DNA of 64,000 nucleotides from Psammoneis japonica (taxonomy: Eukaryota): positions 1 to 64,000 of the forward strand of contig QPGO01000245.1 in assembly GCA_008632985.1 (NCBI GenBank), written 5' to 3'. The notes under the pieces were generated by a model that did not search any database, was not told the origin of the DNA, and saw only the letters and a program-made list of their open reading frames with translations. Numbering within the stretch: position 1 is the stretch's first letter; each line of letters opens with the position of its first letter. The position numbers and the translations under genes were made by a program. Below, one piece after another: positions 17,574-64,000 of this stretch.

Positions 17574-17795
17574 ACAGAAATTGAATGAAAACTGGTGGCA
17601 AGACAAGCAACACTTCTCCCTGCTGTCCAAATGGCACATGGGTCACCATGCAGAGACCATTGCAGGAGCCAAAAAAGACATGCATCATGTTGTTGGCATG
17701 CATGCACTGATGCATGAAGACAAGAGCACACACAACTGCATGAGACAAATCTCGCACAACTCACATCCTGTTCAAATCATTCAAATCCTGTGACA
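17574..17795 (-). repeat. 5' LTR relic of the Copia element
   Basis: Same three blocks as 12584-12742, lying upstream of gag. The minus strand begins TGTCACAGG. Confidence 0.75.
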
Positions 17796-18471: not shown

Positions 18472-18474
<3 letters not shown>

Positions 18475-18510
<36 letters not shown>

Positions 18511-18534
18511 GTCTCTCCCTCCCTCTCTCTCTCT
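18475..18534. repeat. (CT)n/(GA)n microsatellite
   Basis: Directly visible, imperfect at its 3' end. Confidence 0.95.
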
Positions 18535-18874
18535 GGTGAAACAAGTTGATTGGCACAGACAATCATCCATCAAATCATGTGACTGACAACTGGAGCAGCT
18601 GGAGTCAACAGCTGCAATTTGGGTGCTCATTTCAGCCACACAACAACAGCAAGGCACAGGATTGTTGGCCAAAGTCAGGAGCAAGTTTTCTGCAGTGGCT
18701 TCATCAACAGCCAGCTGTGCTGTTGCCAGCACAAGATGGAGGCTGTTGCATGAAAAGATCCAAGGGGCAGGCAGACAGTGAGCAGTTGTCAAGTGGGCAC
18801 ATTGCTCTCCCTGTCTGTTGCTCCATCTCTCTCTTCCTCTGTGCGTGTCTCTGTCTCTCCGGCTCTCAGCTGCC

Positions 18875-19090
18875 GCCCCCTGTTTGCAGCCCTGTGGGAC
18901 AAAACTTTGGGGCCATGTTTGGGTGCAAAAGGAGGTTGCCAAGGTTCTAGGATCCTCAGCTGCAACAGACAATCATGCGGTCAAGCCCAGCAGCACATTG
19001 TGGGGCATGGCTGCACCGCAGGTTTGAGAGCGGCTGAGAGTGGCGAGAGCTGGGTGGGCCAAAGGAGCAGCGCCAAAGCTTGATCTCACA
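18875..19090 (-). mobile_element. Degenerate 3'-end fragment of a Penelope-like RT, related to the element at 26010-26220
   Basis: Shares ctgtttgca..ggacaaaact..gggccat, caacagacaatcatgcggtcaag and ggtttgagag with the element at 26 kb. Translates GLDRMIVCCS. A CT-rich tract is adjacent. Confidence 0.75.
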
Positions 19091-19436
19091 AAAGCAGCAT
19101 TTGAGAGTGGTTGAGAGTGATGAGCTGGGTGGGCTAAAGTGCCAAAGCTTGATCTCACAAAAGCAACCATGGCTCAAAGGCAAAGCTGTTGTTGCTGGCC
19201 CGCTCTTGATTTGGGCACAGCGGGAGAGACAGCCGCTGGAGGAGCATGCCCCACCTGCCCTCTTCCTTTTTGCCAACAAGCTGCCAGTGGCAGCAGGGGG
19301 GGAGTGGCTGGTCAGCTGGACGAAAGAGGACAAAGCAGGTTTTTGCAGTGATGCTGGCTGGTGGCAGCAGCCACAGCTTCATTTGGACAACACAGCATCA
19401 CGCTTTATGTAGCGTAAAAATTATTTTCGAGGTAGC

Positions 19437-19508
19437 GCAGCCGTGGCTCAATGGTAGAGCTTTCGTCTTCGGAACGAAAGGTTGGGGGTTCGAGTCCCCT
19501 CGGTTGTA
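19437..19508 (+). tRNA. tRNA-Arg (anticodon UCG)
   Basis: Cloverleaf with acceptor GCAGCCG/CGGTTGT, D arm GCTC-AATGGTA-GAGC, anticodon arm TTCGT-CT TCG GA-ACGAA and T arm GGGGG-TTCGAGT-CCCCT. A T-run follows downstream. Confidence 0.9.
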
Positions 19509-20345
19509 AAATTGGCATTTTTATTATTTATTTGAAATGCTTTCGTCGAGCATTCAACATTCACCATCCTTTTCGCTCTTTTGGTTGCTTTTCTGTGTGG
19601 GACGACGCCAAGTCGAGTAGGGCCCTATTGTAACACTCCCAAGGACAAATAATCCGGTATTTTGGAGGCCGCCAGTGCCAGAACATTCTTGGTGAAAGGT
19701 GAATTTATGGAAGGATATCCCACCGAAGATGGACTGACAGCGCAAGATTTGATCCAATCCGTCCGGTCAGGGCGTTGGCATAAGCACCACGCATCGGCAC
19801 CAAAGGCGTGCCTTTTTTCTCAAGTCTACACCGCATTTTGTCAGCAAACGGCCACTGTGGAGCTCGCAGGCCGGGTCTTGCTCGATTAGAGACTCCCTGC
19901 AATTCAGTGACGGATCAAAGTGAATGCTGGATGCCGGATGCTGCATCGATTGCGGCAGACAATGGAATAATAATTGAAGCAAAAATCAGCGATCGAGATG
20001 TCTCGATTTCAATGCTCACTTTTCCAACCCAAAAAGGACGACGTTCTCGGCTGCGATCCTTTGGCTGAGATGCAGGGGCGCGATCCACTGCGAGACTGGA
20101 GCACTGATATTGCTGGTGGCTTTGGCAAGGCGCGTGGCTGAAACGACCATGACAATCATATCGGGCCCTAGAATTTCAGAGTAAATGGAAAGCCGCTTTG
20201 GCGCAATCTTGGAACTACGAGCCGATGACGAGCACCGGTACCATACTATTTATACACGTACACGCGTGACGACGCTAAAAATGTCTATGAGTGAAGGTCA
20301 ATCGAGCGATGATTACTAATTGTAGAACAAACGGAAGCTCCTCAT

Positions 20346-21499
20346 CTACTCCATACACCAGCTCATGCGAGGTCCCCAAAAGTCTCGCTGATGAATCCAA
20401 GAATTGGCTGCGTACTTTACCCCCTTACGGACAGGCATTGCGGAATGCTCTGTTCTTTCGTCGATTTCGTTTGGTTTATCGTTCAAGACATTTGGCCAAA
20501 GAAGGGCACGTCCACGTTTCGGATGAAAAGTCAAGTCCAGTCCGGGAAAGTGTGTTTCTCCCCCATCCTCGACACTATTCAAGTACAAGAAAAAGTCATG
20601 ATCCGCACTCCGTATTGCCTGTAGTAATCCGGCCTATCATAGTCACAATGGGCTTCATACATCTGTCCTTCTTCATATCGTAATAGCTGCAAGTCTTCCG
20701 AATGTGTGGTCGGAATACCAGTGATGTTGGCAATACGTTCCAACACTCCTTTTGCCACGACATCACCGTGGCATTCTGTGCACCAGGCTTGACAAGAAGT
20801 GCGTCCCTCGTGAAAGTATGTTTGATATGTACCATCAGGGAGATATTCACCCCAGTCGTCGCTTCGTACGTATTCTGCTTCGTGACCCATCTGGATAAGA
20901 TGATTGGCTTCTTGTTCTGACATAACGTTTTCCAAACTAACGATCCATGGACCTAGCTTGTAGTCTGCTGTCTCATGGTTGTCGCCTTTGGCGTACGTGG
21001 GCCGTGACCATACCTTGGATTCAAACGACTGCACGTGTGGGTCTTCTATCAGATCTTCGAAAAACTTATTGAGATCACCTGGCCCCCAAATGTCGGGTTC
21101 ATCGGGATCAGTTGGACATCGCGTTTCGTATTCCATCATCTCACACTGGAAACAAACAGGAGCGCAATTGTAGCGCATATAGGGGTCGTCACAATGCCCA
21201 TCCACTGCCCAAACAACACAATTCTCGTCTCGATTCTTGCATCGAGGCACCAATGGCATCAAATCTTCATCTTCAGCGGCCCATTCCATGTAGCCCTGTG
21301 TCATGGTAACACGATCTACGTGTTCTTCGTTATCCATGTCGATGACTTGCTCTACGCCAGTGTCAACTTCGTCATCAACCGCAGGCGCAACGTCATCATC
21401 GCTACAGAGTTTACCGTTACAGAAGGCTCGCTCGTGTTCGTCACCAAAGCACTGACGAGATAGAAACAGGATAACAATTAGGAGCCCCTTGCTTGCCAT
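20346..21499 (-). CDS. Prolyl 4-hydroxylase (2OG-Fe(II) oxygenase) with signal peptide and ShKT domain; one 1-bp frameshift at about 20592
   Basis: ShKT-like CKNRDENCVVWAVDGHC..CAPVC, then RTS, SEDLQLLRYEEGQMYEAHCD, YLNSVEDGGETHFP, PKRGRALLW and RTEHSAMPVRKGVKYAANSWIH. A T5 run stands where T6 would restore TFFLYLN. Confidence 0.9.
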
Positions 21500-22899
21500 T
21501 CTTCTGCATGATTCGTTCTTGAATAACGGAGCAACATTTATTTTGTGAGCGAAGTAATTAGCACAACGCACAACACACACACACTCTGGCGAGTCAGTCA
21601 TTCGAGTTTCCATTTTGATGACCTCAAAATGACTTCGTCTGTGCGCCCGTTCCGGTTGGTCTCACTGGTTGTTCAGACCAAGAATCAATCGCCTCACCGC
21701 AAAGTGAAAAACAGGCAGTGGACAAAAAGCCAAGCATGAACCTATGACACTGTGCTGTTGAGCCGGCAAGTCACTGTCACCAAAAGGGAATCCTGCCAGG
21801 CTTCCTGTGCCACTCATTCTTGCACTTGCCCTGTTGCTGTGTCGGCTGTGGCTCGCCTCAACATCGAATGTCAAACGTGTGCCAACAGATTGTTGGGTGG
21901 CAACAGATGGCACTTGTTGTTCTCAATCAACCAGATGATTCACTCCAAAGAGTGAGCAGAAAAAAGTCAGTGAGATCATGACAGATGATGGAGAGAAGAT
22001 CCTCCAAAGAAAACAGCAGTCAGCATCCTCAACTCGCCACGTCAGCGCTCAAAAGATGCAGCTGCATTTCCAGGTCACAGGTGGAACCCCTTGAGCCAAA
22101 GGCTTCAACATGTGCCAACCATGGTTGCTGCCAAAACCATCAACACAAATTCACTCACATTTCTGCTCTCAGAGGGGGTGACTCTCAACAAGCTTGAAAA
22201 TTGATGGCACACATTCTGGCACACACAAGGTCAAGCAAAGTTCTTCAAAAGCCATTGCTCGGTTGACACATCATTGGCATTTAAAAAGTCCTTGTCATCC
22301 ATCTGAGGGACAATGTGTTTTCTTCCCTTTGTGGATGCTGCAGCTTGACAGATCTTTTGCTTTTTTCTGTGACCTTGTTTGCCTTGTTCTTCTTGTCCTT
22401 GGTGCGTTCATCATTGCACATGCACACGCAGCCAGACAACCCAAGTGGAGGCCTTTTGGGCAGCAGCAATGTTGAGGTAGCTTTGGAAATGTGGTCATAA
22501 AGAATGACATGCAAAAACAATGTGGATCCCATGAAGGGGTGCTGGAAACACATTTTTCACAAGACAAAACATCATGTTCATGTTCTCTGAATTTTGTGTG
22601 TCAACATTCCCTGCCCTGAACAATGCTTGCATGCCACCCCAACAGCAGCCATGGTGCATTTGGTGCCAATGTGACATGCTTGACAGGCAATTCACAAATG
22701 TGTCAACAGGCTTTTTCAATCACTTCTTGAGTGTGTGTCCACCACAGCTGTCGCCCGTGCACAAAAAGAACATCAGCTCAGAGAAAAACAGCTGAAAGAA
22801 GAAAGCTCTCACACCACTCTCATTCCTCCACACCTTTCACAGCTCCATCAAAAGTCAGAGGTGAACAGAGCACTGGCATTTGTCAATGTTTCACCGTGT

Positions 22900-24210
22900 C
22901 TTCAACAGCAGGACACTTGAGGTTCCAAAGCTCCAGAGTGAAAGGATCCCACGACGGCGGCACCAGCCATCCTGACAACAACAAACTGAGGGCATTGGTG
23001 TCTGGCAGATCCCAGGTGACACTTTTGGGAATTGCAGCTGGGTGTTGAAAGGTTGACCTTGTGTTGTTGAGGCCCCATGTCATCTTGTTCCTGACAGCAG
23101 GTGAGCAGATTTGACTTTCCCAACTCCAGAGTGTCTGGTGGGCCCCAGGAGTGACTTCAAGAATGGTGGCTGAGCACTGCAAGATTGATCTCATGGCATT
23201 GTGGTCCCATGTCACCTTGTCCCCAACAGCAGCAGACTTGACTTTCCCAATGCCAGAGAGCAACAATCTCATGATGGCACCAACCAACCAAACAGCTGCA
23301 AGCTGAGGTCATTGGTGGTGTGTGGCAGACCCCAGGCAAGACTTTGAGAACTGTGGCCAAGCATTGCAAAAGGTTGATGTTGTGGTGTTGTGGTCCCATG
23401 CCATGTTGTCCTCAATGGCAGCTGACTTGAGTTTCTAAACTCCACAATGCAAAGATCCCATGACATGCCAGTGCACCTGACAACAGCATCAGCCTGAGGA
23501 CATTGCCTGGCAGTGTCTTGTTTGCCCCAGGTGAGACTTTGAAGGAACTGGTGGGGTGCTGCAAGGTTGATCTTGTGGCACTGTGGCCCCATGTCACCTT
23601 GTCCCCAACAGCCACAGACATGACTTTCTCAACTCCAGAGTGAGGAAAGGAGGACCCCGTGACAGCACCAGCCAATCCAAGAGCTGCCACCTGAGGACAC
23701 TGACAGTGTCTGGTGGATGAACAGCAAGACTTTAAGAGCTGTGGTTGAGTGCTGCAAGGTTGATCTTGCGGTGTTGTGGCCCCATGTCAGCTTGTTGTCT
23801 CTGGCAGCAACAGAAAACTTGAGTTTCCCATGTCCAGAATGCAAGGATTCCATTGTGGTGCTGGCCAACCTGACAACTGCAAGCTGAGGGCATTGGGCCC
23901 CAAGCAACATGCTCCTGAGAGCTGGGGATGAGTTTGCAAGGTTGACATTGTGGTGTTGTTGCCCAATGCCACCTTGTCCCCGTCAGAAGCAGACTTGACT
24001 TTCCAAACTCCAGAGCAAAATGATGCCATGACAGTGCCATCCATCCTGTCAACAGCAAGCTGCAGGCCTTGGTGGTGTTCAGCAAATCCCAGGCAACACT
24101 TCTTAGAGCTGTTGTGGCTGGGCATTGAAAAGTCAATCTTGTGTCATTGTGGCCCCATGTCACCTTTTCCTCAACAGCAGCAGATTTGAGTTTCTGAAAT
24201 CCAGAGTGAC
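22900..24210. repeat. Degenerate tandem repeat, about 190-bp unit, about 7 copies
   Basis: The anchor ggYcccatgtcacctt recurs at about 23071, 23203, 23392, 23585, 23778, 23961 and 24151, each followed by ..actccagag. Confidence 0.85.
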
Positions 24211-24599
24211 TGGTTCAAAGGTTTTTGATTGATGAATGGCAGTGGGTGAGAATGCAAGAAACATGAAGTTGTTTGCAATGGCAAAATGGCATGAGGAAAA
24301 TGGAGAACTTTGCATTGGCATTTTTGAAGCAAGTTTCACTTTGCTGGAAGCAATGAAAAACTGCAATGATCAGACAAGCCATCTTTCACCCTGATCTAAA
24401 GCTCAAGTGAGAATGGATCTTGTTGGAAGATTGGTTGAGATGCAAGTCAGAAATGTCAAACTGAGCTTTGTTGGTGGCACACAACACAACTTTTGGAAGC
24501 TTGCAGCCTCTTCAAGCTTTCCTTCCATGAGTTGTCAAATGAGTTTGCATGGCTGGTGTTGTTGACAACACAGCAGTTGCAATGTGGCACCAATCATCC

Positions 24600-25700
24600 A
24601 TGCTGACCTTTGCACAAAGTCTCAATCTTGAGTGAGTTTTCTGTCTCCAAAGCCTTGGTCATTGCAGCTGGTGCCATCCAGTCATGCAACCCAGGTCCTG
24701 GAGTCAGGTTCATGGAGAGCACTCACCCTTCTCTCTGAATGACAAATTGGCACCAGCACTTTGACAAGCATGGCATCCAAGTGGCCCTCAACAATCTTTT
24801 GCAAGAGACAGAACTGGTGCATTCACAGAAAAGAGCTGCACAAACAGAGAACACAATTTGGTGTTCCCCACCAGAAATCCACTGCCTGCTGCAGAGTGCA
24901 ATGTGCAAGCACAGACTGAAGCAAAAAACAAAACCAAATTCTTGCAGTCATGCAGGCCCTGATGACTTGGCACCCCACAATGTTTTCAGCACATTTGTTG
25001 TGTCTGTCAACAGCTTCAAAGAAGTGGCATTGAAGAAAGCACTGATTGACCCACACTGCAATCTGGGTTGATGTTGGCATTTGTCAAATTGTGATGTGAT
25101 GACTGTGTTGAGTTGGTTGACAAGAATTTCTTGTGGCAACAGGAAGCGTGAATGATGGCATGGCCATTGCAGGGGCTGCATGACATTGTGAGCCAAAAGC
25201 TCTGGAGTGTGCAAGCTGACACTGGGCAGAAGGAAAGGACTCAAGTTTGCAATTGTGTTGTTTGTCAAAAACAGGGACTGCTGGTTCAATGATTTGTTCA
25301 TTTGAAAAGAGAGTCTTTTCACAGGCATGCAATGAGGATGCCGTGAGCTGCAACAGGGCTGCACTGTTGTTGCACAAACAATGGATTGAAGGCTGAGTTC
25401 TTGTGTGGTGCCTGGTGCAACAAAGAAACACAACAAAACATGCAACGGGCAACTGGGTGGCAGAAGATCTTCCAAAACAAATGAGCTGGCTCTGGGCAAG
25501 ATGCTGGGCCACAAAACAGAGCATTGCAAATCTACCACCTTTGGAAAAATTGACTGTTGGCCTGGATGACAAACTTTGGCAATGGCAGATTTGTGGCTGA
25601 AAATGAGCCAGTGTCAAAACATTGTTCAGAATCACAACTGCTTGTGACTTCTGTGAAGAGTGCAGTCACAGGTGCAAAGATTTTTTTGTCAATTTGCCTT
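24600..25700 (+). mobile_element. Possible non-LTR retrotransposon 3' remnant
   Basis: HATGNWVAEDLPKQMSWLWARCWA resembles the TG..W....LW....W C-terminal pattern of stramenopile LINEs. Very decayed. Confidence 0.3.
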
Positions 25701-25829
25701 CTTGTTGGGCATGAGAAAACATGCTGCAGATGACAGCTGTGACAAACAAAGAATGCAAGCAGCTGAGGTAGAGCCACTTAATCGGACATTTATCCAACTG
25801 TTTCGGCAAATGGCAGGCACAACAACGTT

Positions 25830-25877
25830 GGCCGAAGTCAGGAGAATGAGACTTTCGCGGTGGCTTCATCAGCGGCC
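25830..25877 (-). ncRNA. Type I hammerhead ribozyme (copy 1)
   Basis: Minus strand reads GGCCG-CUGAUGA-A-GC(CACC)GC-GAAA-GUC(UCAUUCUCCU)GAC-UU-CGGCC. The core is intact, with a 5-bp stem I, a short stem II and stem III. Confidence 0.8.
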
Positions 25878-25966
25878 GGCTGTTGTTGTTGACGTGGTTG
25901 AGGTTGTTGCGTTAAAAAATCCGAGTGGTGGAGGACAGGCGAGTTGACTCGATTGATTAATTCAAA

Positions 25967-25971
25967 TCACC

Positions 25972-26010
<39 letters not shown>

Positions 26011-28280
26011 GGGCCTCCCTGTTTGCAATCCGGCAGGACAAAACTGGGGGGCCATGGGAGATGCAAAGTTTGCAACAAGACAGAAGGTTTCCGAGGTTGT
26101 GTGAGCGGCCACAACAGACAATCATGCGGTCAAGGCCGATGCGTTGTCGAGCGTGATTTCGAAGGTTTGAGAGGGGTTGTGAGCAGGGAGGGGTGGCCAT
26201 GGCACCTTTCCAAATTTGCTGCAGTTCACTTGATGGCGGATCATTCGGATGACAGGGGATGTGCAGAAAGATGGGGTTCGACTGAGGTGCTTGGATTGTT
26301 CCGGTGGCGTTGCCAAGGATGCGGTCATGTGCCTTGTGGAAGAGCAGTTGCAGTTTGCTGGGCTTGTAGCCTCGAGCTTGAAGTCGAAGGCAGAGCAGTC
26401 TCATTTTCGCTTTGGCATCGTCAGTGTCGGAGCAGAGGTTTTTGAAGCGAAAGAGCATGCCCATGACAAGGCCGGTGAGTGCTCCAGGCGGATGAGCTGA
26501 GTGAGGCGGGATGTGCATGTGTGGGTTCATTTCTTTTTCATAAAGGGTGGCATGCAGGTGGGAGCCTTGGAGTGAGATCGTGAGGTCCATGAAGTTGACT
26601 TGGTGGCTTCGGGCGCTCGTGATCCAGGTGATGTCGAAGTCGTTGAGCCTGGAGGTAAATGCTTCCCAGGTGGCGGAGTCGGTGGCAGAGTCGGTGATGC
26701 GCCAAATGCCAAAGACGTCGTCAATGAATCGTTTGCAATAAAACAGCTGGGAGCCAAACTCCTCCAGGAGCATGTCTTCGTGAAGTGCGCAGCATGAGGC
26801 AGCGCATGGAGGGGCGGGTGGTGTGCCCATGGCGGTTCCATTGCGCTGGTGCCAGGTTGCATCTCCGAATGTGAGTGCATTGTTTTCCACAACGATTCAG
26901 AGGGCTTTGATGAGGGCGTCCGTTGGTGCATCGTTGCAGTCATTTTCATGACGTCGGAGGTGGGCGGCGATCAATCGAAGTGCTTTGTTGGCAGGTGTGT
27001 TGGAGCAGCAGGCCTCGGTGTCGGATGTGAAGAGGAGGCAGTTCAGTGGTAACTCCATTCGGACGAGTGCTTGTTTCAGGTCCAGGGAGCTCTTGAAGTG
27101 TGAACGTTGGTGGCGAGCAATCTTCTGGAGCTTGTCGTCTACCCAGATGCCTGAGCCGTAGAGCAGGCTGCCACTGGTGGAAACGATTGGTCGAGATCGT
27201 AGCGGTGGGGGGCTTGTGCACCTTTAGAGTGAGGCAGAAGACAGGGAACGGGTCTTCGTCAGTTTCGAGACAGTTTTTGAGGTGCTTGCGTTCCATGGGG
27301 GTGAGGCTGGCTTTGCATGTCGTGAGCCAATCGTTGAGGAGGTTTTTGATGCGGCGTTCATAGAATCGGGTTTCAAATTCGTTGAGGAAACGACATGCGT
27401 TGGCACCATTAAGGTGGTCGCGGCATGCCATCTTGACATGTTCAGTCTTTTCGATGATGGCGGGTCCCAAGTTCTTGTCGCATTGAGCTGTTGTGAAGTC
27501 ATCTTGTTTGTGAAGGTAGGTGAGGGCGCGACGTTGGTGAGGCAGGAGGTTGGTTCTGCCACGGCGTTTCACGAGCAGCTTGGTGACTTGTGTCTTGAAA
27601 GCAGTGTAGCGGCATTTGACGATGTTGGTGAGTTTCCAAGAGGGAGGTGTCCAATTGGACCGGAGGTGCATCCGGGGGTTGCAATCTCCATCAGCATTGT
27701 CAATTGGGGCATTGGCAAAATGCTCACGCTTGTCGAGGTCTTGCTTGAATCGTCCGAGTGTGTGTTCTTGGATCTTGGAGGACTTCCCGTCATTGGCGAA
27801 GCGTGGTGTTGGGATAAATTTCAAGCCGAGACCGAGCAGTGATTGAAGGTTTTTTGGTGGTTGTTTTGTTGTGATGCAGTCATGGAAGGCAAGGTGAGAG
27901 GGCCTGCTGAAGCAGTGCCAGGCAGGCATGTGTTGGAGGTGGATGCAGGCGTTGTGGTGGGTTGTGCGAGATGGATCGGCGACGAATCCGTGTGTGCGGT
28001 GGATTCGGCGGTGGATCGCCTCTAGCGCCTGTTCCGATTGGTGCTGGAGCGCTGTTGCTTCTTTTTCGATGGCTGTTTCGATTTGGAGCGACGGCGATTG
28101 CTTTTGTTGGCGCTGGCGGTGTCGTTGTCGGCATCGTCGGCTTCGCGGTCGCGCTGAGGACGTTGTTTCCTCGGTTGACCCGATGAGGCACCTTTGCCTT
28201 TTTCTTTTTGTGATGAGGCGCCGGCGGTGTGAGTGCGGCCCCTCTGGGTGTTTGATTGAGCCTTCATGGACTTGATTCAT
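25967..28280 (-). pseudogene. Penelope-like reverse transcriptase (disabled by a frameshift at about 27190, a TGA at about 26898, and many Tyr>Cys/His changes)
   Basis: Motifs LLGLGLKFIPTP, CDKNLGPAII, FCLTLKVHK, LFTSD..CCSN (motif A), GTAMGTPPAP (B'), KRFIDDVFGIW (C), VNFMDLTI, LYEK..IPPHSAHPPG, RLQARGY and LHIPCHP. The ORF runs into (GA)n. Confidence 0.9.
25973..26008. repeat. (TC)n microsatellite at the junction between the RT 3' end and the downstream repeat
   Basis: Directly visible. Confidence 0.95.
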
Positions 28281-29306
28281 TGGGCAAGCGAGTTGACCTG
28301 TTGGGAGAGTTTTTTGGTGTTTTTCTCGGTTTCCTTGCGGATTAGTTCTTGCAGGGTGGCAGGGTCGACGGCGGCTTCATTGTCAATTTCCATGTTGGCG
28401 TGTTCGGCAGCCTCTGTGTCAAAGTGTTCTTTGTTCAGTTTCTTCAGCTGGAGGCTGATGTCGTGTTTCTTTTTGGTTTCGAGGTGGGTTTCCCAGGGAG
28501 ACACGAAGATGCATTCAAACGCTCAGAAAATCTTGCTGAGCTCAGTCTCGACTTTCTGTTGTGCGGTGGTGATCTGCGGAGCTGCTGGTGCTGGTGCGGG
28601 TTCTTGTGTTAGGAACAAGGAGTCGCCAGCTCGGTCCTCTTCTTGTGTTGGTCGAGCGGCAGGGGCAACCAGCGGTTGAGGCAGGTCAGGGACGGTGTTT
28701 GCAGTCTTGTGCTTGGCAAGGAAGGCATTGAGGTCGCGGGCCATGACGTGTTTGAGTAACGTCTCATGGCAGCGGTCGAGTGGGGGTGACCACTGCAGTG
28801 TCGACAGGCGTGTTGATGCTGTCGGCCACAACGAAACTTTCGGTTGCGAGTCGGATGGCTTTCGCGTGCGACTCCAAAATTTCTTCTTGGATGACTCGGA
28901 GTTCAATCTTGGTGGCTTGGATAACTTGCTTTTTGAAAGCTAGTTGGGTTGTAGAGATGAGGTCATTGGTTTCCTCCTGCAGAGCTAAAAACTCCTGGCT
29001 CTGTTCAGCGGTTTTCGACATTTGAAATTCGAAATTGATGCGGGCTGAGCGGGGGATGAACTCCTCATCTTGTTCCATCCGTTGGATGTGAAAGGCCTTG
29101 TTGTGGGCCCCAGCTTGCAATTGGATGTGGTGGAGAGCAAGCTTCTCAAGGATGGTGGCTATTTCTGGTTGGAGCGACACGATGTGGTTCCTGATGCGTT
29201 GGGCAGCGGTGGCAAGGGGTGTCCTTGTTTGCTGGTTGGCTGGGTTCACCGCAGTTGAATCGAAACGCGTGCGTTTTGGATTGGTGGTCTCGGTCGCAGC
29301 ATCCAT
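28022..29306 (-). pseudogene. ORF1 of the Penelope-like element (coiled-coil with Lys/Arg-rich tail), disrupted
   Basis: ORF pieces 28764-29306 (FIPRSARINF), 28523-28760, 28277-28504 and 28022-28267. The last two are in frame across a TGA (likely CGA>TGA) and overlap the RT frame. Confidence 0.7.
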
Positions 29307-29460
29307 TGTTGTCGTTTCACTCTCTCTCGAATGAACGAACGAATCGGCACAGCCGATTCTCCGTCAAATGTGACAAACAAAGAATGCAAGCAGCTGAGGT
29401 AGAGCCACTTAATCGGACATTTATCCAACTGTTTCGGCAAATGGCAGGCACAACAACGTT

Positions 29461-29508
29461 GGCCGAAGTCAGGAGAATGAGACTTTCGCGGTGGCTTCAT
29501 CAGCGGCC
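29461..29508 (-). ncRNA. Type I hammerhead ribozyme (copy 2), upstream of ORF1
   Basis: Identical to 25830-25877. Confidence 0.8.
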
Positions 29509-30326
29509 GGCTGTTGTTGTTGACGTGGTTGAGGTTGTTGCGTTAAAAAATCCGAGTGGTGGAGGACAGGCGAGTTGACTCGATTGANNNNNNNNNNNNN
29601 NNNNNNNNNNNNNNNNNNNNNNNNNNNNNNNNNNNNNNNNNNNNNNNNNNNNNNNNNNNNNNNNNNNNNNGGGGGGGGGGGGGCTGCTTTTTCCAACCTT
29701 CACACAGAGGAGGGAGGCTCCCTGGGCCAAAACAATCTGGAGTTTAGAAAAACAACTGTGCCGCGGACTTCCCAGAGTTGAGGGAGATGTTCGGCTTCTC
29801 CACAAGCTCAAGAGGGTAGTCAGAAAGTTTGTGTCTGGTGTGCTGCACTTTTTTCCAAAGGTGTGGGCCCAGGTGAGCTGGCAGTCATGTCTGCCCCAGC
29901 TGCAGGGGTTGCTTCAACCATCTGGCCCAAAAACTGTTTGACAAGAACAAGACTTGCACCATCTGGAAACACACAGATGAGCATGCAACCCAGATGGCAG
30001 TGGATGGTGTCACACAAGCAAAGTGTCCAGAGACAGATTTTTGGCATGCAAGTCAACCAAGAAGCTTTGCCAAGTCAACCCAACACCAGGAGCTTCCAAC
30101 TTTGCAGGACTTGAGGTGCTCTGATCTTGAGAGAGAGGCCAGAATGCTGGTGCAGTGAGGAAGATTTCATCACAGAGGCTCCCCTCAGATGAGATGTGAT
30201 GTGGTGTGCCACAGAGAGCTGCACCACACAAGTTGCCAGGCAAGTCTGCCACTTTTGGTGTGAGCCTTGACCACCCCCTGGACCATCTTGACTTCACCAG
30301 AAGCTCCTTCTTGCCAGGGCCAGCTC

Positions 30327-30328
<2 letters not shown>

Positions 30329-30367
<39 letters not shown>

Positions 30368-30638
30368 GATCAAAATTGGCAAAGCCAATTTTCCGTCAAA
30401 TGTGACAAACAACAGCGGTGCAAGCAGCTGGGGCAGAGCTGCTTAATTGGATGTTTGTCCAACTGTTTTGGTGAATGGCAGGCACAACAACATTGGCCCA
30501 AGTCAGGAGAATGAGGCTTTTGTGGTGGCTTCATCAGCAGCCGGCTGTTGTTGTCATTGTGTGGTGGGCGTTGTTGCGTTAAAAAGATCCAAAGAAGGAC
30601 AGACAGGTTGATTAAATTGATTCAATTCAAGTCAAGTT

Positions 30639-30674
<36 letters not shown>
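30329..30674 (-). mobile_element. Older degenerate copy of the PLE 5' repeat (inactivated hammerhead), flanked on both sides by (CT)n
   Basis: 30363-30630 aligns with 29329-29587, with TA>CA/TG and CG>TG/CA changes. The hammerhead GAAA has become AAAA. Confidence 0.8.
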
Positions 30675-30677
<3 letters not shown>

Positions 30678-32682
30678 GGCCTCCATGTCCATCTTGACTT
30701 CACCAGAAGCTCCTTCTTGCCAGGGCCAGCTCATCTCTCTCTCTCTCTCTCTCTCTTGTTCTTCCAGCTTTGGAAAGAGCCCCAGCTGGCTGTTTGTCTC
30801 TTTTGTCTCTCTGAACATGTCAAGCTTTCTTGTGTGTCTGCCACTGACCAAGAGCTTGTTTGTGGCTTGTCTGAATCATTTCCAGATGATGCCTCAACTT
30901 TTGACAACAATGTTGAAGTGCAACACTTGGTCTCTTTGTGCATTTTGTGGGTGGTGACACACAGGAGCTTCCTGAACTGATTTTTTCTGTGCTGTGTGTG
31001 ACTTCTTGCTCTGCTTGGCTGTGGCAAGAGAACAAGCTCAACCATGTGCTTTTCACTCATTGACGCCAAGTTTGCCTTTCCTGAGACAGCCACATTTAGA
31101 GGCCACAGTGTCTCTGCTCATTTTTGAGTCTCCAGTTGGAGCACCCCATGCTTTTGTGATGTCTTGCACACACTGGTCAGCTCCATTTCAGCAGCAGTGC
31201 ACCCCCCCCCCCCCCAGTTTGAGGATCCTGCAGAGGGGGGAAATTCAGAGAAAAAGAGAACAACTGAGTTCCATCCATTGCATGCCTGTGCAAAAGCAAA
31301 AGCCTTCTCAACACGGGGAAGAGGATGTGCTTTTGTCCCAAGCTTGGCTCACAGAGATTGTCATTGTTCAGGCTCAAATTTTCTTGTCATGCCATGCATC
31401 CAAGTTCTGCCCCTCCCTGTGTTGGCAGCAGTGTTTGTGCAATGGGGAGTGAAAGAACAACCAAGTTCTGCAAATTGCATGCCTGCACAAAATGCCCTCC
31501 AGCTGTCCCACCTTGGCTCAGAGGTTGTTGTTCTTTCAACTTGGGTCATTGCACTGTGGGCCCACTTCAATTGTGTGTGCACATGAAAGAAAGCAGCAGG
31601 GGCAAATGGACAGAGATGGGAGATGACATGCTGAAAAGGCTTGCTGCTTGTTTTGTCTGCTGGTGCAAGTGCAGAAGTCAAGATGCTGTGTGAGCACTGC
31701 AAGAAGGGAAATTGACATGTGCACAAGTGTTGAGTTTCAAAGCTTGCATGACAAATTGCCACAAATTGTTTTTAAAAACCACCCATTGTCAATTGAAAAT
31801 TTCATCTGTGTGTTTGTGAGATGTCAATGCAAACATGCACAGCTTTGTTTGCATCATGTGTCATTGCATTGTCAGCCTTTGTTGCTTCTCTGTTTCATGC
31901 TGCAATTTTGCAGATTTGCATGGCTCTAAATGACACACAGCAGAAGTGCAAAATGCACAGGAGCAAGCCACAGCCATTGACATGCCACTTGCAATCACAA
32001 AACAAGGGGAGCTCTGTGTGTCCTTCTGGCACTCTTTGGGTGCTTGTTGAGATTTTTTTCAGCAGGTGCACACACCCAGCATTGGCTGTGGCTCCAGCTG
32101 TTGACAAACAATGGACGGGAGACACCACTCCCCTCTGCAGTTTGTGCCCTGTTCCAGGCTGTTGTTTGTCACAAAAGGCAATGGGTTGGCTTTCAGGCAC
32201 AACATGGGCTTTTCTGCTGCTCCTCAGTGGCCATGTCCTGTGTGGAATCTTTGACAAAAGGTCTGTGGGGAAATGCCATTGTTTTGTTGCAGTGTGTCTG
32301 AGCACAGCATTGTCTGCTGGGGGCATGGTCAAAGCAGAAAGGGGGATGCCACTGCCCAAAAAAACTGGCAGCAAAGATTGCTCTCGTGATTCAAGGTGCA
32401 ACTTTCACCGCAGTTGCTCGTGTTCCATTTTTTACAACTCCATTGGACTCATTGTCATTGTGATCACAACTCTGCAAAAGTGCAGATGCGTGACAACACA
32501 CATTGGCACCGCGCGTTGGCTGAGAGGAACTGCGCTGGATGGCTTTTTATGACTCACTCGTGGTTATCTACGGTACTTGCTTTTGCGAAGTCAAACAGAA
32601 GGTAGGTACAGGAGTGAACAAAGTTTAGTTTTATCGCTTACAGCACAGTAACTGAAAAGGCAGGGAACACGGTTGCTTGTTC

Positions 32683-34264
32683 CTAAGCTGCCTTTTCCTT
32701 CGAAGCATCATGGCCGCTCTCATCCAAGACAGCGTCAAGCGCTTCCTCCATCGTGGCTACAGTTTCAGGAATGTTGCCCATCTTATCCAGCCCAAAGAGA
32801 CCAATCCTAAAGGTACGGAGTCCATCAGGTTCGTCAATCCTCCACGGGACACCCATGGCGATTTGCATGCCCTGTCCCTTGAATCGCTGCATCATGACTG
32901 GGTTGTCCACGCCCGTCGGACTGTAGTAAACCAAAACTCCAGGAGCCTGAAAGCCGGGTGCTGCAACAGATACTAGTCCACGTGAACTAACAGCATCTCG
33001 CGCCGCCTTTCCGAGGTCCAACTGAGCCTGCTTCAGTTCAGGGAGACCAAACTTCAAGGTTTCTACACTGATTTCGTGGAAATCACGCAGACCATCCGTG
33101 GGCATGGTTGTGTGGTAACCAAATGCGCCCTTTTCATACGTGTCCATAATGGCAGACCATCTCTTGAGGCTCATGCTGAAGGACGTTTCTTGCGTGGTGG
33201 ACATTTTCGCCACTGCATTATCCGACATCATTACGAGTGCGGCACAAGCGGGGCCAGTCCAACCCTTTTGAGGGGCAGAAATCACAACGTCAACACCCAA
33301 GTCTTTCATATCGGCCCAGACGGTCTGCATTTCAAGTTAAAAGTAATACAAGCAATCCTGTCAGTTTCCCATTGCAGCATGCCGTTTTGTTTCATAACAT
33401 ATACTCACACCAGATGCAATGCAATCCAAAACAAACAAGCCTCCCACGTCGTGCATGGCGGCACTGGCCTTTCGGATATAGTCATCCGGCAAAATCATAC
33501 CCGTGGACGTTTCCACGTGAGGAGCAAACAAGACCGCCGGTCGCTCCTCGTAAATTTTCGCAACCACGTCATCGATAGGGTAAGGTGCATACTGCTGATT
33601 CTCTGGGTTGTCACCAGGCTGAGGCTGCGCCATGAGGACAGTGTGTGACTTGGGGATTGTGTGCCCTTCTGTAATTGCCGTATGGCGAGAGTAATCAGTG
33701 CAAATGAGTCACCCGGTGAAAGATACTACTAAAACATCTTGACCAGCCACGTACCTCCACCCATGTCAAATATTTCTGTCCAGCGAAAGGAGAACCACCC
33801 ATTACGAATCACCATGACGTGTTCGTCGGTCGCAAACTGACGTGCCACAGCTTCCATACCAAAAGTTCCCGATCTGTGGAATTCAAAGATTTTTCATCGA
33901 AAAAGTACCGTTAGTTCCTGATTCTGAAGTACTTTTACGCAGAAGGCGGTATTAACAAAAAGCGCTTTTCTCTTCAAACATACCCTGGAATAATCGCAAC
34001 CTTAGAAGCATTATAAGTGGTTTTCAATAGATTATTCAAGTCTCTCATGACTTTCTGGAAGGGATCGCTCATGAGGTTAAGCGCCCGATTCGTGAAGATG
34101 ACCGAGTATTCTTTGTACTGTCCGAAATCATCCTTTGGAACCACGTCGTATGTCAAATCATCGCTAGACGCAGAGAAGGCTCTTGGTGCCGACGCTGTGA
34201 CCGCTCGGGCGGCAGGGGCTCTGCGACCCAAGGTCCTTGCAGTTGATCGCAACATCATCATCAT
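32683..34264 (-). CDS. Class-V aminotransferase (alanine-glyoxylate/serine-pyruvate type) with probable mitochondrial transit peptide; exons 34264-33984, 33873-33755, 33668-33409, 33324-32683
   Basis: Motifs EYSVIFTNRALN, IIPGSGTFGMEAVARQF, FAPHVETSTG, LDCIASG, ISAPQKGW (PLP lysine) and FRIGLFGLDK. Three GT-AG introns keep the frame. Confidence 0.92.
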
Positions 34265-34983
34265 GGTTGTTTTGGAGATGTTGTTGGCAAAATGGGCGAG
34301 CGAGAAAGGATTTCGTACTCGCCAACGTCACGATGACGAAATCATGATGCATGAAGAAACCTACGTAGAATCAATACCATTCCCCACGCATAAAGACAGC
34401 TGTGTAATGACGTCATACTCTAGAAAATCGTGCTGACGTGGTCTGTCGAATGGAATTTCTGCTCGTACGACGAACGTACGCTCGCTTACGTAAACACATA
34501 CATACAACAATAGAAAGACGGATAATAATTAATGCGTTTAACATTTTTTCTTTGTACAGTACTCAATTATTCAATCTTGACTAGAAACAACATTGTTTAA
34601 CGGACAGAAATGTCTTTGACATCCTAGAAACGGTATTATTATTTAATTAGAAATGTCCTTGACAAGAATTCTTACTAATTAAGATTTTTCCTCTCTGTTC
34701 CTTTATATAATGATTGGTGCGCAATCTGGCCAGAAATGTCTTGTCAGGTGTTTTCGGGTCCACGAAAGATAATATAGGATCCTGCGTGAGAATGACACTT
34801 ACGGCTGTGCAGTTTTCATGCATTTTTTTAAAGTTTATGTTCGAAGTTGAAGTGAAGGGGACGAAAAGCGAATTATTTCTCCATGCCGTGTTGACAACAT
34901 GACACAAGACAACAAAAGACGTCCACCACCTCTCAAAGTAGTATCTCTGTGCTCTTTCTCTCATCACGAAAATAATATCGATC

Positions 34984-36141
34984 ATGTTCTTTCATCAATC
35001 CGCTGAAGTGTCAAACTATGATGTTTTGTTCGGGCGTGACGGCTCTCTCGCATCTGCCAACCATGTAGGAAACAACCGGTTCGAAGTCTTTCTGGAGCTT
35101 CATCGAAAGGAGTTTTTTCGGGCCAAGTCGCAGCAGGAACGAGACGTGACAGTCGATAGAATTATCAATACTGTCTGTCGCCAGTGTGTACCAAATGGCC
35201 GCTTCTTGGAGCGCAACGGAGACCAGTGGGCAATTCTGAGTAGTGATAAGGCCACAAGAGAGCGAATCCATCAGGCCTTGATGATGGGTGTTGACACTGA
35301 GAACCACAAGCGCTTGACGAGGCACGTCACCGAAGAATCTACCCAAAGGAACGAAGGAGGCCCCAAGCGACCTCGTCGTGGATCCCTACATCGTCTGAGG
35401 CGTTCCATGTCCGAAAGCATGGTGTCTTCATGCGAATTCAGTCTTTCCTCCATGACGATGGAAATAGAAGAAGAACCGGCTGCCTCGATCGACCGAAATC
35501 CTACGTGGGAGTCAGAGCGGGGTTCCTTTCCAGGACCACCCATGACACCTGCAGCACCGATTCTAAGTACAGTGTCTAACGGACCGGTATCACAGCAAAT
35601 GGACGTGATTCTGAGTGCCAACGGCGTTTCTCTGGACCCCCAACCAACGCTTGTGGGAAATAATCGATTCCGCGTGTTGTTGACGATGCACTCCAAGAGT
35701 CTAAATATGGAAGAAACCGCAACAGAACTAGTGAGGACGGTGACTACCCATTGGAAGGGTCGCTTTCTCAAGGCAACGTCAGACTTTCCACAAGCCGCCT
35801 TGCAAGAGTTAAGCACCTCAGAATCCACAGCCTTCGTCGCCACGTTGCTACGGCAGCAACAAGCTGCTGCTCCTGCAGCACCACCACCGCAACAAGCTGC
35901 TACCTCCGCAACGCCACCACCGCAACAAGCTGCTTCGTCTGCATCGGCTTCATTGTTTGGTGTATTCAATCCCGCTGAGATCCGAAATATGAGGAAAGCT
36001 GCCGTCAAGGAACTCAAGGAACGAAAACAGAAGAAGCAGGTCGCAAACAAGATGATCGGTAGATTACTCCCATTGTCCAATGATGGAACATTGCCTTCTT
36101 CGTTCAACAGCTTTCAGAACTTTATGAGCAACAAGCGCTAA
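34984..36141 (+). CDS. Diatom DUF6824-like domain protein (two repeats)
   Basis: 385-aa ORF with DVLFGR..HVGNNRF..GRFL and DVIL..VGNNRF..GRFL. Confidence 0.8.
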   Translation: MFFHQSAEVSNYDVLFGRDGSLASANHVGNNRFEVFLELHRKEFFRAKSQQERDVTVDRIINTVCRQCVPNGRFLERNGDQWAILSSDKATRERIHQALMMGVDTENHKRLTRHVTEESTQRNEGGPKRPRRGSLHRLRRSMSESMVSSCEFSLSSMTMEIEEEPAASIDRNPTWESERGSFPGPPMTPAAPILSTVSNGPVSQQMDVILSANGVSLDPQPTLVGNNRFRVLLTMHSKSLNMEETATELVRTVTTHWKGRFLKATSDFPQAALQELSTSESTAFVATLLRQQQAAAPAAPPPQQAATSATPPPQQAASSASASLFGVFNPAEIRNMRKAAVKELKERKQKKQVANKMIGRLLPLSNDGTLPSSFNSFQNFMSNKR

Positions 36142-36387
36142 GTTGCAATACGATACAATTTCGAGGCCGCGCCATAATCTTTTCACAAGAGTAGTGTAAA
36201 CAGTCATACATGCTGTACTGTAGATATTCACCAAATAATCAATCCGCCTTTGATTTGTCGCGTCTGGCTCTATGGTACTACATATTTGATTACGGTCTCG
36301 ACTCCATGAGTATTGAAGATAATGTGTGCGTTTGAACTAGAGTAGGCTGCCTTCAAAAACTGTTCCTCAATCATCATTCGTGACGAG

Positions 36388-37605
36388 CTACAATGTGCAG
36401 GTACAGATAGCAGATGAAGCTTTCCTCCTACAACCGTGCGATTCTCCCCCGTGGGTGCAGCTCTCCGCTTTCTCAGCTGAAAGACACGCACCACCGCGTT
36501 TCTTGCAGTAACTGTGGCATTTCCCACCGCCCAAATCAATGTGAAATGTGCACTGCGAATCGTCTGCGCCACATATTCTGGCACGACGACTACCATACTT
36601 CGTCAAGCAGCCATGGCTATTGATGATGGGAGAAGTGGATGGGCTTGTTGAGTTTGTCTTTGCTGTAGGATCTTCCTTGAAAATCTTCTCAAGCAATGTC
36701 GGTGATGGAGTTGGACCGAATGTTGAAGAATGTCCGGTTGGGCTAGTCGTGAGCTTGGAGGCTTTCACAACCGACGGCTTTTTTTCTTCCCCCCCCCCTG
36801 AAAGGGGAGTAGTGAAGTGATAACTTGGAGCACTTGCGGATGTCACCACTCCATTCACTTCCTTAGAGAAAACTGTTCTTGAAAACATTACCTCCTCGCA
36901 GTCTATCTTTATCACTTGTCTGAGGAACTCATTCATCCAGCTTTCAAAGCTAGGTTCGGGCGTCTCGTGGTCGTTGAGACATAAATTACAGGAAACCTTA
37001 ACTTGGAGAGTGAACTTGCGTCTTTTTCTACTTTTCCCAATTTTCTTTCTTCTTGTTCCTTGAGAGAACGCCGCTTTGACAAGCGCATCCGCGATCTCAT
37101 CGACTGGATGGTCTTCCAATACGACCTTCTCCTTGGTAACGAGTTGGTCACCAACAAATATCCTTACTCGAGCAGTAGCATCATTTACAACTGTCATTGA
37201 TATTTTTTCCACGCCTTGGTTGAATAAGACTCTGTTTATCACCCACTCTTCTTCGGCATTGTCGTGTAAGAACTGTCTAATGCCATTGGGTTTGCTTGGG
37301 TATTCTCTATACTGAGCGTACTCAGCATAATACCTTTGTGCAAAGTTATTCATGTTTGATGCCATTGATTTTTCAATACACACGACAACTCCTTCCGAAG
37401 GTCCATTGTCGTTGTCGTCCGGTCCCCCTTCATCCACATCTTCGTCCATGTCGATGCTGTAATAGTATGTCACATCGTCCGACACGTCAAGATCCCTTTC
37501 TTTCATATTCAGCAGGGCGGTACGTAAAGAAGCATTGGTCGTCCCACAAGAGAATACTGACAGTACTGACACTGAACCGAGGATGCTGGTTAGAGAGAGT
37601 CCCAT
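36388..37605 (-). CDS. Hypothetical secreted protein with Ser/Thr/Pro linker and Cys-rich C-terminus
   Basis: Long ORF of normal composition, with a hydrophobic N-terminus MGLSLTSILGSVSVLSVFSCG, an acidic patch, a PTPSPT stretch and a Cys-rich end. Confidence 0.65.
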   Translation of the reverse strand: MGLSLTSILGSVSVLSVFSCGTTNASLRTALLNMKERDLDVSDDVTYYYSIDMDEDVDEGGPDDNDNGPSEGVVVCIEKSMASNMNNFAQRYYAEYAQYREYPSKPNGIRQFLHDNAEEEWVINRVLFNQGVEKISMTVVNDATARVRIFVGDQLVTKEKVVLEDHPVDEIADALVKAAFSQGTRRKKIGKSRKRRKFTLQVKVSCNLCLNDHETPEPSFESWMNEFLRQVIKIDCEEVMFSRTVFSKEVNGVVTSASAPSYHFTTPLSGGGEEKKPSVVKASKLTTSPTGHSSTFGPTPSPTLLEKIFKEDPTAKTNSTSPSTSPIINSHGCLTKYGSRRARICGADDSQCTFHIDLGGGKCHSYCKKRGGACLSAEKAESCTHGGESHGCRRKASSAICTCTL

Positions 37606-63978: not shown

Positions 63979-64000
63979 GTTGCTGTTACGACCGCGGTCC

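Follow-up and report, generated by a model that had tools for sequence, protein, structure and literature searches.

What removes nearly every TA dinucleotide from a transposable element while most of its CG dinucleotides stay in place? The question is raised by a 64,000-nt stretch of contig QPGO01000245.1 (hereafter the window), in which the minus strand at 25738–29587 carries what fits a dead, endonuclease-less Penelope-like retrotransposon (PLE), a reading drawn from sequence features and a structural model set out below. Counted over 25967–29306 (3,340 nt), the region to which figures for the element refer unless otherwise said, 193 CG remain (observed-to-expected ratio, o/e, 0.85) and 23 TA (o/e 0.14), and TG on the sense strand, which is the plus-strand figure for CA, stands at an o/e of 1.64. 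The original prediction, made from the letters alone, had noticed that no TA lies between a purine (R) and a pyrimidine (Y) in these 3.3 kb of still CpG-rich DNA, and the counts bear this out: the plus-strand contexts are 14 RTAR, 7 YTAR, 2 YTAY and no RTAY. The probability of finding no RTAY among 23 TA is 0.009 if the region's own neighbour frequencies are taken as the baseline, 7.8e-5 against genic DNA of the window, where the RTAY share is 0.337, and 2.0e-4 against the share of 0.309 in the reverse transcriptase (RT) coding regions of relatives (30 of 60 relatives or loci). TA o/e is 0.42–0.88 in the RT regions of those 30 relatives, none of which is TA-depleted like the window copy.

The loss is also visible in the protein. 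Six peptides had been quoted as carrying mutated tyrosines, and all are found in minus-strand translations (LFYCKRFIDD, ACCSNTP, MHIPPHSAHP, LHIPCHP, IVCCGR and FCLTLK). In an alignment with 73 homologues, each of at least 600 amino acids, Tyr is held by at least 60% of the homologues in 18 columns; at these the window has Cys 12 times, His 5 times and Tyr once, and all 17 changed codons are TGY or CAY, the products of TA>TG or TA>CA, so that the claim of mutated conserved tyrosines stands. Other conserved columns were kept in 240 of 301 cases (47–100% by residue type; P = 1.4e-10 versus Tyr, Fisher's exact test), which brings all conserved columns together to 241 of 319, and no homologue among the 73 has more than two Cys or His at the 18 Tyr columns. 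The composition of the window RT differs from the homologue mean in the same residues (Tyr 1.0% versus 4.2%, Cys 4.2% versus 1.1%, His 5.9% versus 3.5%). Of the six Thr>Ala changes, four read T|ACN>T|GCN, in which TA>TG spans a codon border. T:A>C:G transitions on TpA thus account for 17 of 17 changed Tyr codons, and TA/TG/CA polymorphism recurs between copies of the element and between the units of a tandem array elsewhere in the window.

The element is one part of a mosaic. A scan in 500-bp bins, 128 in all, divides the window into three composition classes with borders that are sharp, within 500 bp. Genic stretches (1–5000, 19501–21500, 32501–50000, 57001–58900 and 60501–64000) have CG o/e of about 1.0 and TA o/e of about 0.55 (range 0.4–0.9), with RTAY the commonest TA context (390 of 1,157). 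TA-poor, CG-normal DNA (TA o/e <0.25, CG 0.7–1.2, CA/TG 1.3–1.4) comprises the element and a second domain at 50001–56000 that contains no recognisable element and to which no strand is assigned (TA 0.0–0.17 and CG 0.70–1.21 in its 500-bp bins). Doubly depleted DNA (TA 0.00–0.13, CG 0.00–0.29, CA/TG 1.8–2.0) occupies 5501–19000, the largest domain nearly without both dinucleotides, and 22001–25500, 29700–32400 and 59001–60400; these four domains, pooled over 21.1 kb, retain 53 TA and 117 CG in complex, mostly unique sequence rather than simple repeats. Among 129 open reading frames (ORFs) in the depleted domains, no Pfam family was found at E ≤ 1e-4, hence no host-gene families; composition, borders and Pfam results together show the depletion confined to foreign or mobile DNA, with host genes spared.

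The same order of context loss recurs in these domains. The original prediction had proposed that RTAY goes first and RTAR and YTAY next, with YTAR immune. With strands pooled, genic DNA has 13.0 RTAY, 9.8 RTAR/YTAY and 6.1 YTAR per kb; the corresponding densities are 0, 2.4 and 2.1 in the element, 0.5, 1.4 and 1.3 at 50–56 kb (14 RTAR, 8 YTAR, 3 YTAY and 3 RTAY, the last being 3 of 28) and 0, 0.26 and 2.0 in doubly depleted DNA, where YTAR makes up 42 of the 53 surviving TA and RTAY none (P = 3e-10 and 3e-24, respectively). The proposed order therefore holds outside the element as well, and immunity extends to TTAA only: relative to genic DNA, survival in doubly depleted DNA is 0.62 for TTAA, 0.27 for CTAA/TTAG, 0.09 for CTAG, 0.013–0.05 for contexts with one TAY and 0 for RTAY.

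These figures are described by an additive per-strand model: on each strand the hazard of the A depends on its 3′ neighbour, and the hazards of both strands are summed. In doubly depleted DNA the model fits all ten context classes (for example, 22.2 fitted versus 22 observed for TTAA, 16.7 versus 17 for CTAA/TTAG and 3.7 versus 3 for CTAG), with hazards of 3.79 for T, 2.79 for C, 1.08 for G and 0.23 for A, and improves on a single rate with a likelihood ratio of 132.5 (P = 1.5e-28); the ordering of hazards is identical in TA-poor, CG-normal DNA (likelihood ratio 29.2). The comparison of contexts thus supports refining the hierarchy to TAT ≥ TAC > TAG > TAA. The products are directed as well. 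Gains of TG per kb in doubly depleted DNA are +12.7 for RTGY, +16.2 for YTGY, +5.2 for RTGR and +8.8 for YTGR; by our arithmetic, a directed model (YTAY to YTGY, RTAR to RCAR) predicts about 12.2, 16.3, 6.8 and 7.8, whereas for YTGY and RTGR alike an undirected one would yield about 11.5, and it is the directed model that the observed gains match. The suggestion that the target is TAY read on each strand, with RTAY a target on both, is accordingly borne out by the fit of the additive model, which also predicts the fate of the Tyr codons (about 5.8 His among the 17 changed, again by our arithmetic; 5 observed), but less firmly by the split of that fate on the preceding base, 9 Cys and 1 His after Y as against 3 Cys and 4 His after R (P = 0.10, Fisher's exact test). 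An older relic of the element's terminal repeat (30352–30688) shows losses of both TA and CG: relative to the young repeat it has GTAG>GCAG and TTAT>TTGT, with both TTAA kept, alongside seven CG>TG/CA changes and three CA/TG swaps.

How does the loss of CG relate to that of TA? In the window copy it is the slower, as had been claimed. The 19 conserved Arg columns read CGN in 15, AGG in one and CAA, CAA and TGC in three, so that CGN Arg codons were lost in 3 of 18 cases against 17 of 18 Tyr codons; similarly, low TA with normal CG is found in 20 of 128 bins and the reverse, low CG with normal TA, in 0 of 128. CG exposure relative to TA exposure comes to about 0.06 in the element and about 0.36 in doubly depleted DNA (the latter being our own ratio), while TA exposure, reckoned from the TAG, TAA and TAY hazards, differs only about twofold between the two. 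Read against the genic baseline, this suggests an early, self-limiting erosion of TA and a slow, continuing decay of CpG. The broader statement that TA erosion precedes and is independent of CpG decay is upheld as to the lag, but 'independent' overstates the case and is plausible only. CpG loss has a flank preference too: CpG survival in doubly depleted DNA relative to genic DNA ranges from 0.011 for TCGA to 0.25 for CCGG, and the per-strand hazards by 5′ neighbour are 1.93 for T, 1.27 for A, 0.78 for C and 0.76 for G, the last two being about equal. A 5′ T is favoured by TA and CG targets alike.

Other genomic copies give the changes a direction. The element is multi-copy (read depth 255–1645 versus 59 for single-copy DNA), 192 of 957 aligned contig pieces are at least 99% alike, and 77 of 88 differences between copies are transitions. 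The type of difference is known for the 40 of the 88 that are listed, and counts by type refer to these. The window has lost a CG that others keep in nine cases and keeps a CG that others have lost in four; for TA the corresponding counts are three and two. A further 12 positions form six pairs of ambiguous TG↔CA double differences, and the remainder are seven other transitions, two transversions and one site outside the element. Per surviving site, TA is about threefold more variable than CG (5 of 26 versus 13 of 202). At 26112 another copy has TAT (Tyr) where the window has TGT (Cys), and at 26740 the window has TAT (Tyr) where other copies have CAT (His), so these changes are derived and copy-specific. 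The Tyr losses nevertheless appear to be mostly shared among the aligned copies. Independent of the element, a 301-bp tandem array at 53975–55076 has units between which 69 transitions and 20 transversions are counted and CG/TG/CA, TA/TG/CA and TG/CA polymorphisms occur; its units resolve one ancestral site as TA, TG or CA, which implies change in resident DNA after duplication.

When the element was hit relative to its insertion is less clear. The two copies of its terminal repeat, a pseudo-long terminal repeat (pseudo-LTR), are identical over 219 nt, and each still holds one RTAR and one YTAY (the four TA at 29369–29587 are GTAG, TTAA, TTAT and TTAA, beside 13 CG), so most erosion would predate the last copying. 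Alternatively, the identity could be a product of assembly or conversion, the right copy abutting a run of N. The description of the element as a young insert is thus unsafe: identical pseudo-LTRs with sensitive TA sites imply that the erosion is older than the last copying.

We consider it likely, on the compositional and comparative evidence above, that a DNA-level, TpA-directed transition hypermutation (TpA to TpG or CpA) hit non-genic, repeat-derived DNA of a diatom-like nuclear genome, and that the element was caught with its TA nearly gone and its CG mostly present. Under this model one T:A pair would be hit at a time, with a strong preference for pairs whose A precedes a pyrimidine (5′-TAY, equivalent to 5′-RTA on the opposite strand), in the order TAT ≥ TAC > TAG > TAA. 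RTAY would offer two good targets and go first; YTAY and RTAR, with one target each, would become YTGY and RCAR; and TTAA would be almost spared. If we infer a chemistry, and with it an enzyme and the strand chemically attacked, the likeliest would be enzymatic deamination of adenine in DNA, with A converted to inosine and read as G, as proposed for Bigelowiella natans. CpG loss would be a second, slower process, probably deamination of 5-methylcytosine (5mC) in silenced, presumably methylated DNA, and it would continue after TA had been exhausted, giving domains free of both. A wider version, which we hold tentatively and at somewhat less than even odds, is that diatoms possess a defence of the DNA adenine deaminase type that strikes newly arrived or repeated DNA in early, self-limiting bursts, turning T-A-Y into T-G-Y on either strand, wiping out all Tyr codons and killing RT genes long before methylation-driven CpG decay; the same or a convergent system would operate in Rhizaria and so be widespread in the stramenopiles, alveolates and rhizarians (SAR), with the survival of TTAA only as its signature.

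Several observations weigh against TpA-directed hypermutation as we describe it. Two of the six polarisable TA differences go the disfavoured way (26740, ATAA>ATGA; 28758, GTAA>GTGA), which makes the flank rule a preference, and the Cys/His split by preceding base, as noted, reaches only P = 0.10. TA changes had been expected to outnumber CG changes between copies, and the reverse was found, with 13 CpG-type against 5 TA-type differences among the 40 of 88 listed; the 301-bp array is likewise CpG-heavier, with 10 columns against 3 for TA. The context baselines, whether from the window's genes or from the RT regions of 30 relatives, stand in for true ancestors, and the evidence consists of composition and copy comparison rather than directly observed new mutations. 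The identical pseudo-LTRs, which put most erosion before copying, leave it not timeable against insertion. Finally, the read run that confirms the letters may be the assembly's own source, its library type not being on record.

Could the changes instead have been made during copying? An ADAR-like A-to-I editing in UA context, acting on the element's RNA or first-strand cDNA before it was copied in, would make the erosion a property of retrotransposition and not of resident DNA. It would account for pseudo-LTRs that are identical down to their surviving TA, as expected if changes precede or accompany copying, and for the excess of Tyr>Cys (sense-strand A>G) over Tyr>His, 12 to 5; moreover, a 5′ U is favoured by ADARs according to the Discussion of bioRxiv 10.64898/2026.01.13.699255. 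We regard it as unlikely all the same, since 5 of the 17 Tyr changes are sense-strand T>C and thus impossible by editing of sense RNA, flanking bases alone account for the Cys/His split, a matching loss with the same context rule is found in 6 kb (50–56 kb) and 21 kb of DNA without a recognisable retroelement, and units of the tandem array differ at TA/TG/CA sites, which places change after a DNA-level duplication. ADARs also prefer G, and not a pyrimidine, 3′ of the edited A. Shared rather than individual history is the gist of another explanation, by which the TA-poor, Cys- and His-rich state is the ancestral composition of the family, produced by selection against UpA or by codon usage and spread by amplification, with no erosion in the window copy at all. 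The high copy number of the element suits it, as does the finding that TA elsewhere stands against TG or CA in the window at only 3 of the 40 listed differences (of 88); none of the seven R-preceded Tyr codons has a TG/CA difference among those 40, and most losses seem common to copies at least 90% alike, although the degree of sharing is not measurable from 40 of 88 differences. That an RT lacking 17 of 18 conserved tyrosines would be functional is improbable, however, given that no homologue of 73 has more than two such changes; copy-specific states at 26112 and 26740, the six TG↔CA swaps and the equal depletion of non-coding and unrelated DNA also speak against ancestral composition, and we give it little credence.

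The two remaining explanations concern the letters themselves and the number of processes. Modified DNA (carrying 5mC at CpG and some modification of T or A at TpA) might have been misread as TG or CA by Nanopore-type base calling or in assembly; epigenetic domains would also produce domain structure, a run of N adjoins the element, and the assembly platform is not on record. Contigs built from exact 31-letter words of public reads at a word depth of about 59 nevertheless reproduce doubly depleted sequence over 3.7 and 1.7 kb with 0–1 differences (19501–23235 with one, 23867–25615 with none), an agreement that indicates accurate reads and not raw error-prone long reads. Half-targets such as YTAY, readable from the opposite strand, would not be 97% converted by misreading, and copies disagree with each other at TA/TG/CA sites. 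As far as accurate public reads go, the letters are real and not a base-calling artefact, and we set this explanation aside as highly improbable. A single 5′-T-preferring deaminase with two rates, converting A in T-A-Y fast and C in T-C-G slowly, would make TA and CG loss dependent on each other. CpG loss in doubly depleted DNA does depend on the 5′ base, with T highest, and bioRxiv 10.64898/2026.01.13.699255 cites ADAT2 enzymes whose substrates in DNA include A as well as C; in the same preprint, however, 230 of 231 new B. natans mutations in hypermutable regions are A>G or T>C. In the window the ratio of CG to TA exposure shifts from about 0.06 to about 0.36, so the two processes are out of step. 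Spontaneous deamination of 5mC is also expected to decay CpG faster in A/T flanks. We judge one enzyme with two rates improbable. TpA-directed hypermutation of resident DNA, with a separate CpG decay, is the explanation that we consider most likely.

The closest known system is that described by Mettrop et al. (bioRxiv 10.64898/2026.01.13.699255), who report TpA hypermutation of integrated viral DNA in mutation-accumulation lines of B. natans: of the 231 mutations that newly arose in two integrated viral regions, 230 were A>G or T>C; those biased towards GC were all on TpA; TpA-poor and CpA+TpG-rich clusters in the genome showed enrichment of RT and DDE domains; and the candidate enzyme proposed was an ADAT2-like adenine deaminase. 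As far as the text of the preprint goes, the window shares with it the exclusive T:A>C:G change at TpA (to TpG or CpA), the restriction to foreign or mobile DNA with host genes spared, the association of TpA-poor, CpA+TpG-rich clusters, genome-wide in B. natans, with RT and DDE domains, and a proposed origin in adenine deamination. The differences are of host (a rhizarian chlorarachniophyte versus a diatom-like stramenopile), of target (inserts of nucleocytoplasmic large DNA viruses (NCLDV) and virophages in the preprint versus a Penelope-like retroelement and unidentified DNA here), of depth (TA o/e 0.02–0.15 in the window, far deeper than the 0.45 of the B. natans NCLDV region) and of evidence, which is direct in B. 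natans and comparative here. Neither the 3′-neighbour rule seen in the window (TAY >> TAG > TAA) nor a tie to CpG loss appears in the main text of the preprint, which mentions neither CpG nor flanking or trinucleotide context. The process most likely represents the same kind of TpA hypermutation as in B. natans, seen here in a second lineage far removed from the first, the sequence rule and the relation to CpG being new in the sources searched. Our literature search, whose coverage left most subscription journals outside, found no report of TA-directed hypermutation in diatoms.

Two other systems invite comparison. Fungal repeat-induced point mutation (RIP) is, like the process described here, a defence of the genome that strews transitions at a single dinucleotide through repeats or foreign sequence and leaves sharp compositional domains and dead transposons. 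RIP changes C to T mostly at CpA, enriching TpA and depleting CpA/TpG. In direction and base pair it therefore runs opposite to what is seen in the window, where TpA is destroyed and CpA/TpG doubled (o/e 2.0); with TpA o/e of 0.02–0.15 and CpA/TpG o/e of up to 2.0, RIP was rejected. Methylated transposons lose CpG by deamination of 5mC in vertebrates, in plants and in diatom transposable elements. Such decay, a loss of CG to TG or CA confined to silenced repeats, accounts for the loss of CpG in the doubly depleted domains; it is ruled out as the cause of TA loss, which in the element is far ahead of CpG loss. On the side of the enzyme, bacterial TadA acts on U-A-C in the anticodon loop of tRNA-Arg, and early base editors derived from TadA preferred YAC, a taste that resembles the T-A-Y preference in the window.

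The composition of roughly half of the 64-kb window has been rewritten; about a third is almost without TA and CG. If an enzymatic, TpA-directed defence is responsible, its known range would widen from one alga in one 2026 preprint to an ecologically dominant and distant group. The TAT/TAC >> TAG > TAA order would guide the search for the enzyme and in-vitro assays, the succession of TA first and CpG later would act as a built-in clock by which insertions could be staged, and the base-editing field would take an interest in an enzyme that naturally deaminates adenine in DNA within a defined context. For annotation, dead elements from which every Tyr codon and two stop codons out of three have gone yield long spurious ORFs and fail profile searches.

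What, then, is the element? Its pseudo-LTRs are direct repeats of 219 nt that flank the body at a spacing of 3,631 bp, the tandem unit length: a downstream copy at 25738–25956 and an upstream copy at 29369–29587 (both minus strand; 219 of 219 identical), the latter cut by an assembly gap (29588–29670), so that the right copy meets a run of N. The left border is marked by a jump in CpG density at 25737/25738, with 3 CG in 24800–25737 and a dense series from 25783. A leader (29307–29368, minus strand) runs from the pseudo-LTR to the first ATG and aligns to the older relic at 30352–30400. From the ATG at 29306, the N-terminal non-RT coding part (28074–29306, minus strand) has several broken frames, with stop-to-stop ORFs at 28764–29363, 28523–28939, 28277–28522 and 28022–28276, and a Pfam search of it gave no family above the cut-off (E ≤ 0.1).

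The RT, the only copy in the window, lies on the minus strand in two frames, 27929–27198 and 27205–26021 by tblastn with six homologues. The first (feature 27207–28073) contains the N-terminal motifs including CDKNLGP, is 43–49% identical to the six homologues over 27929–27198 and has six of the conserved Tyr columns, now Cys in four and His in two. The second (26021–27205) contains the palm motif RFIDD, IPPHSAHP and the C-terminal part, is 44–49% identical and has the other twelve, now Cys in eight, His in three and Tyr in one (kept at 26368). The two are joined by a copy-specific frameshift at 27205–27207 (minus strand), seen as a tblastn frame change; reads from other copies lack one base at 27207 in about half of their depth, one base at 28782 is lacking in another copy, and other copies show neither the 27207 nor the 28782 frameshift. 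An in-frame TGA within the RT (26897–26899, minus strand) aligns with the Arg of the homologue consensus ALRLVM, from which a CGA>TGA CpG transition is deduced. The 3′ end is a (GA)n tail at 25975–26008 (minus strand), reading (TC)n on the plus strand; proteins of relatives run into RERERE at this position, and homologues stop about 20 amino acids past the last conserved block, at the tail.

Sequence profiles gave no RVT or other RT Pfam family for the window pieces or for intact homologues, and a PDB profile search with 30 homologues gave no RT match; the RT was recognised by fold search only. The AlphaFold model of one homologue (P0004, built with 30 aligned sequences; mean predicted local distance difference test score, pLDDT, 84.4) has as its top four Foldseek matches in the PDB the telomerase catalytic subunits 6zdq, 3du5, 7trd and 6usq (E 7e-9 to 4e-8, template modelling (TM) score 0.39–0.42), followed by retron and group II RTs. 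By fold search, then, the RT is most like telomerase, as is that of PLEs. A DKG-type motif is present as CDKNLGP, of which C147, K149, N150, L151 and G152 do not vary among 30 homologues; Craig et al. 2021 (PMC8557442) describe variants of DKG (DKA, DKT and DK-) in PLE clades and note that canonical hammerhead ribozymes are missing from some clades. No GIY-YIG domain was matched by Pfam in the window pieces or in three intact homologues, which groups the element with endonuclease-deficient PLEs, and an Rfam scan of 18000–32500 (E ≤ 1) gave no hammerhead ribozyme, returning only a tRNA and a weak miRNA-like match. With the endonuclease-deficient PLEs (Athena/Coprina) as described in PMC8557442 the element shares a telomerase-like RT, a DK-type N-terminal motif, the lack of GIY-YIG, pseudo-LTRs from partial tandem copies and an association with microsatellites; it departs from that description in having no hammerhead found in the pseudo-LTR, no telomeric repeats, a (GA)n tail and DKN instead of DKG, a comparison made by described features. 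Among relatives from metagenomes, three (L006, L007 and L033) are CpG-depleted with TA kept (CG o/e 0.22–0.39, TA o/e 0.42–0.71; 0.22 and 0.54 in L007, 0.39 and 0.71 in L033).

Older traces of the family lie nearby. The relic at 30352–30688 (minus strand), with the same pseudo-LTR and (TC)n, is CpG-eroded too and 80–82% identical, and a still older one at 18471–19053 (minus strand), comprising (TC)n, pseudo-LTR-like sequence and the 3′ end of the body, is 66% identical to 25815–26196. Around the former, a 77-nt unit ending in (TC)n is duplicated (30274–30350 and 30680–30756; 94%), which looks like a (TC)n target site into which a solo pseudo-LTR was inserted, fitting the microsatellite bias of PLEs. 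The assembly gap at 29588–29670 follows directly on the right pseudo-LTR, and read depth over the pseudo-LTR and (TC)n ends is 900–1645 against 255–1060 over the body, an excess by which the locus may be a longer tandem array that was collapsed.

Several features of the surrounding DNA may be added. In doubly depleted DNA only TGA stops are left and long spurious ORFs abound. One such ORF (13834–14721, plus strand) has 32 weak homologues (best E 8e-14, 35% identity), which are short, rich in Val, Asp, Gly and Glu, and without a Pfam family; they are probably antisense readings of a conserved mobile-element gene. A database search with the opposite-strand ORF found no match. A Tandem Repeats Finder (TRF) run on 22000–25700 found no array, and blastn shows diverged repeats there. 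The 50001–56000 domain is A-rich on the plus strand, with an AT skew of up to 0.43 just upstream. The host assignment comes from the genic stretches: the gene at 38010–40502 is 67% identical to a match from Seminavis robusta, 62% to one from Amphora and 59% to a Nitzschia transcript, its named matches above 47% identity are all from diatoms, and a DUF6824 gene in the window likewise points to diatoms, so that a raphid pennate diatom, or something closely related to one, is the most probable source. A protein-atlas search with a molybdopterin oxidoreductase returned bacterial clusters only and was uninformative on taxonomy. A tRNA-Arg gene (anticodon TCG; 19437–19508, plus strand) sits at a depleted/genic border and adjoins the old pseudo-LTR relic at 18471–19053. 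At four genic/doubly depleted borders (5342–5506, 18844–19406, 21559–22046 and 32385–32548) the TA-free zone extends 50–500 bp beyond the CG-free zone into CG-containing DNA, and TA erosion thus seems slightly to overshoot the CpG-decayed core.

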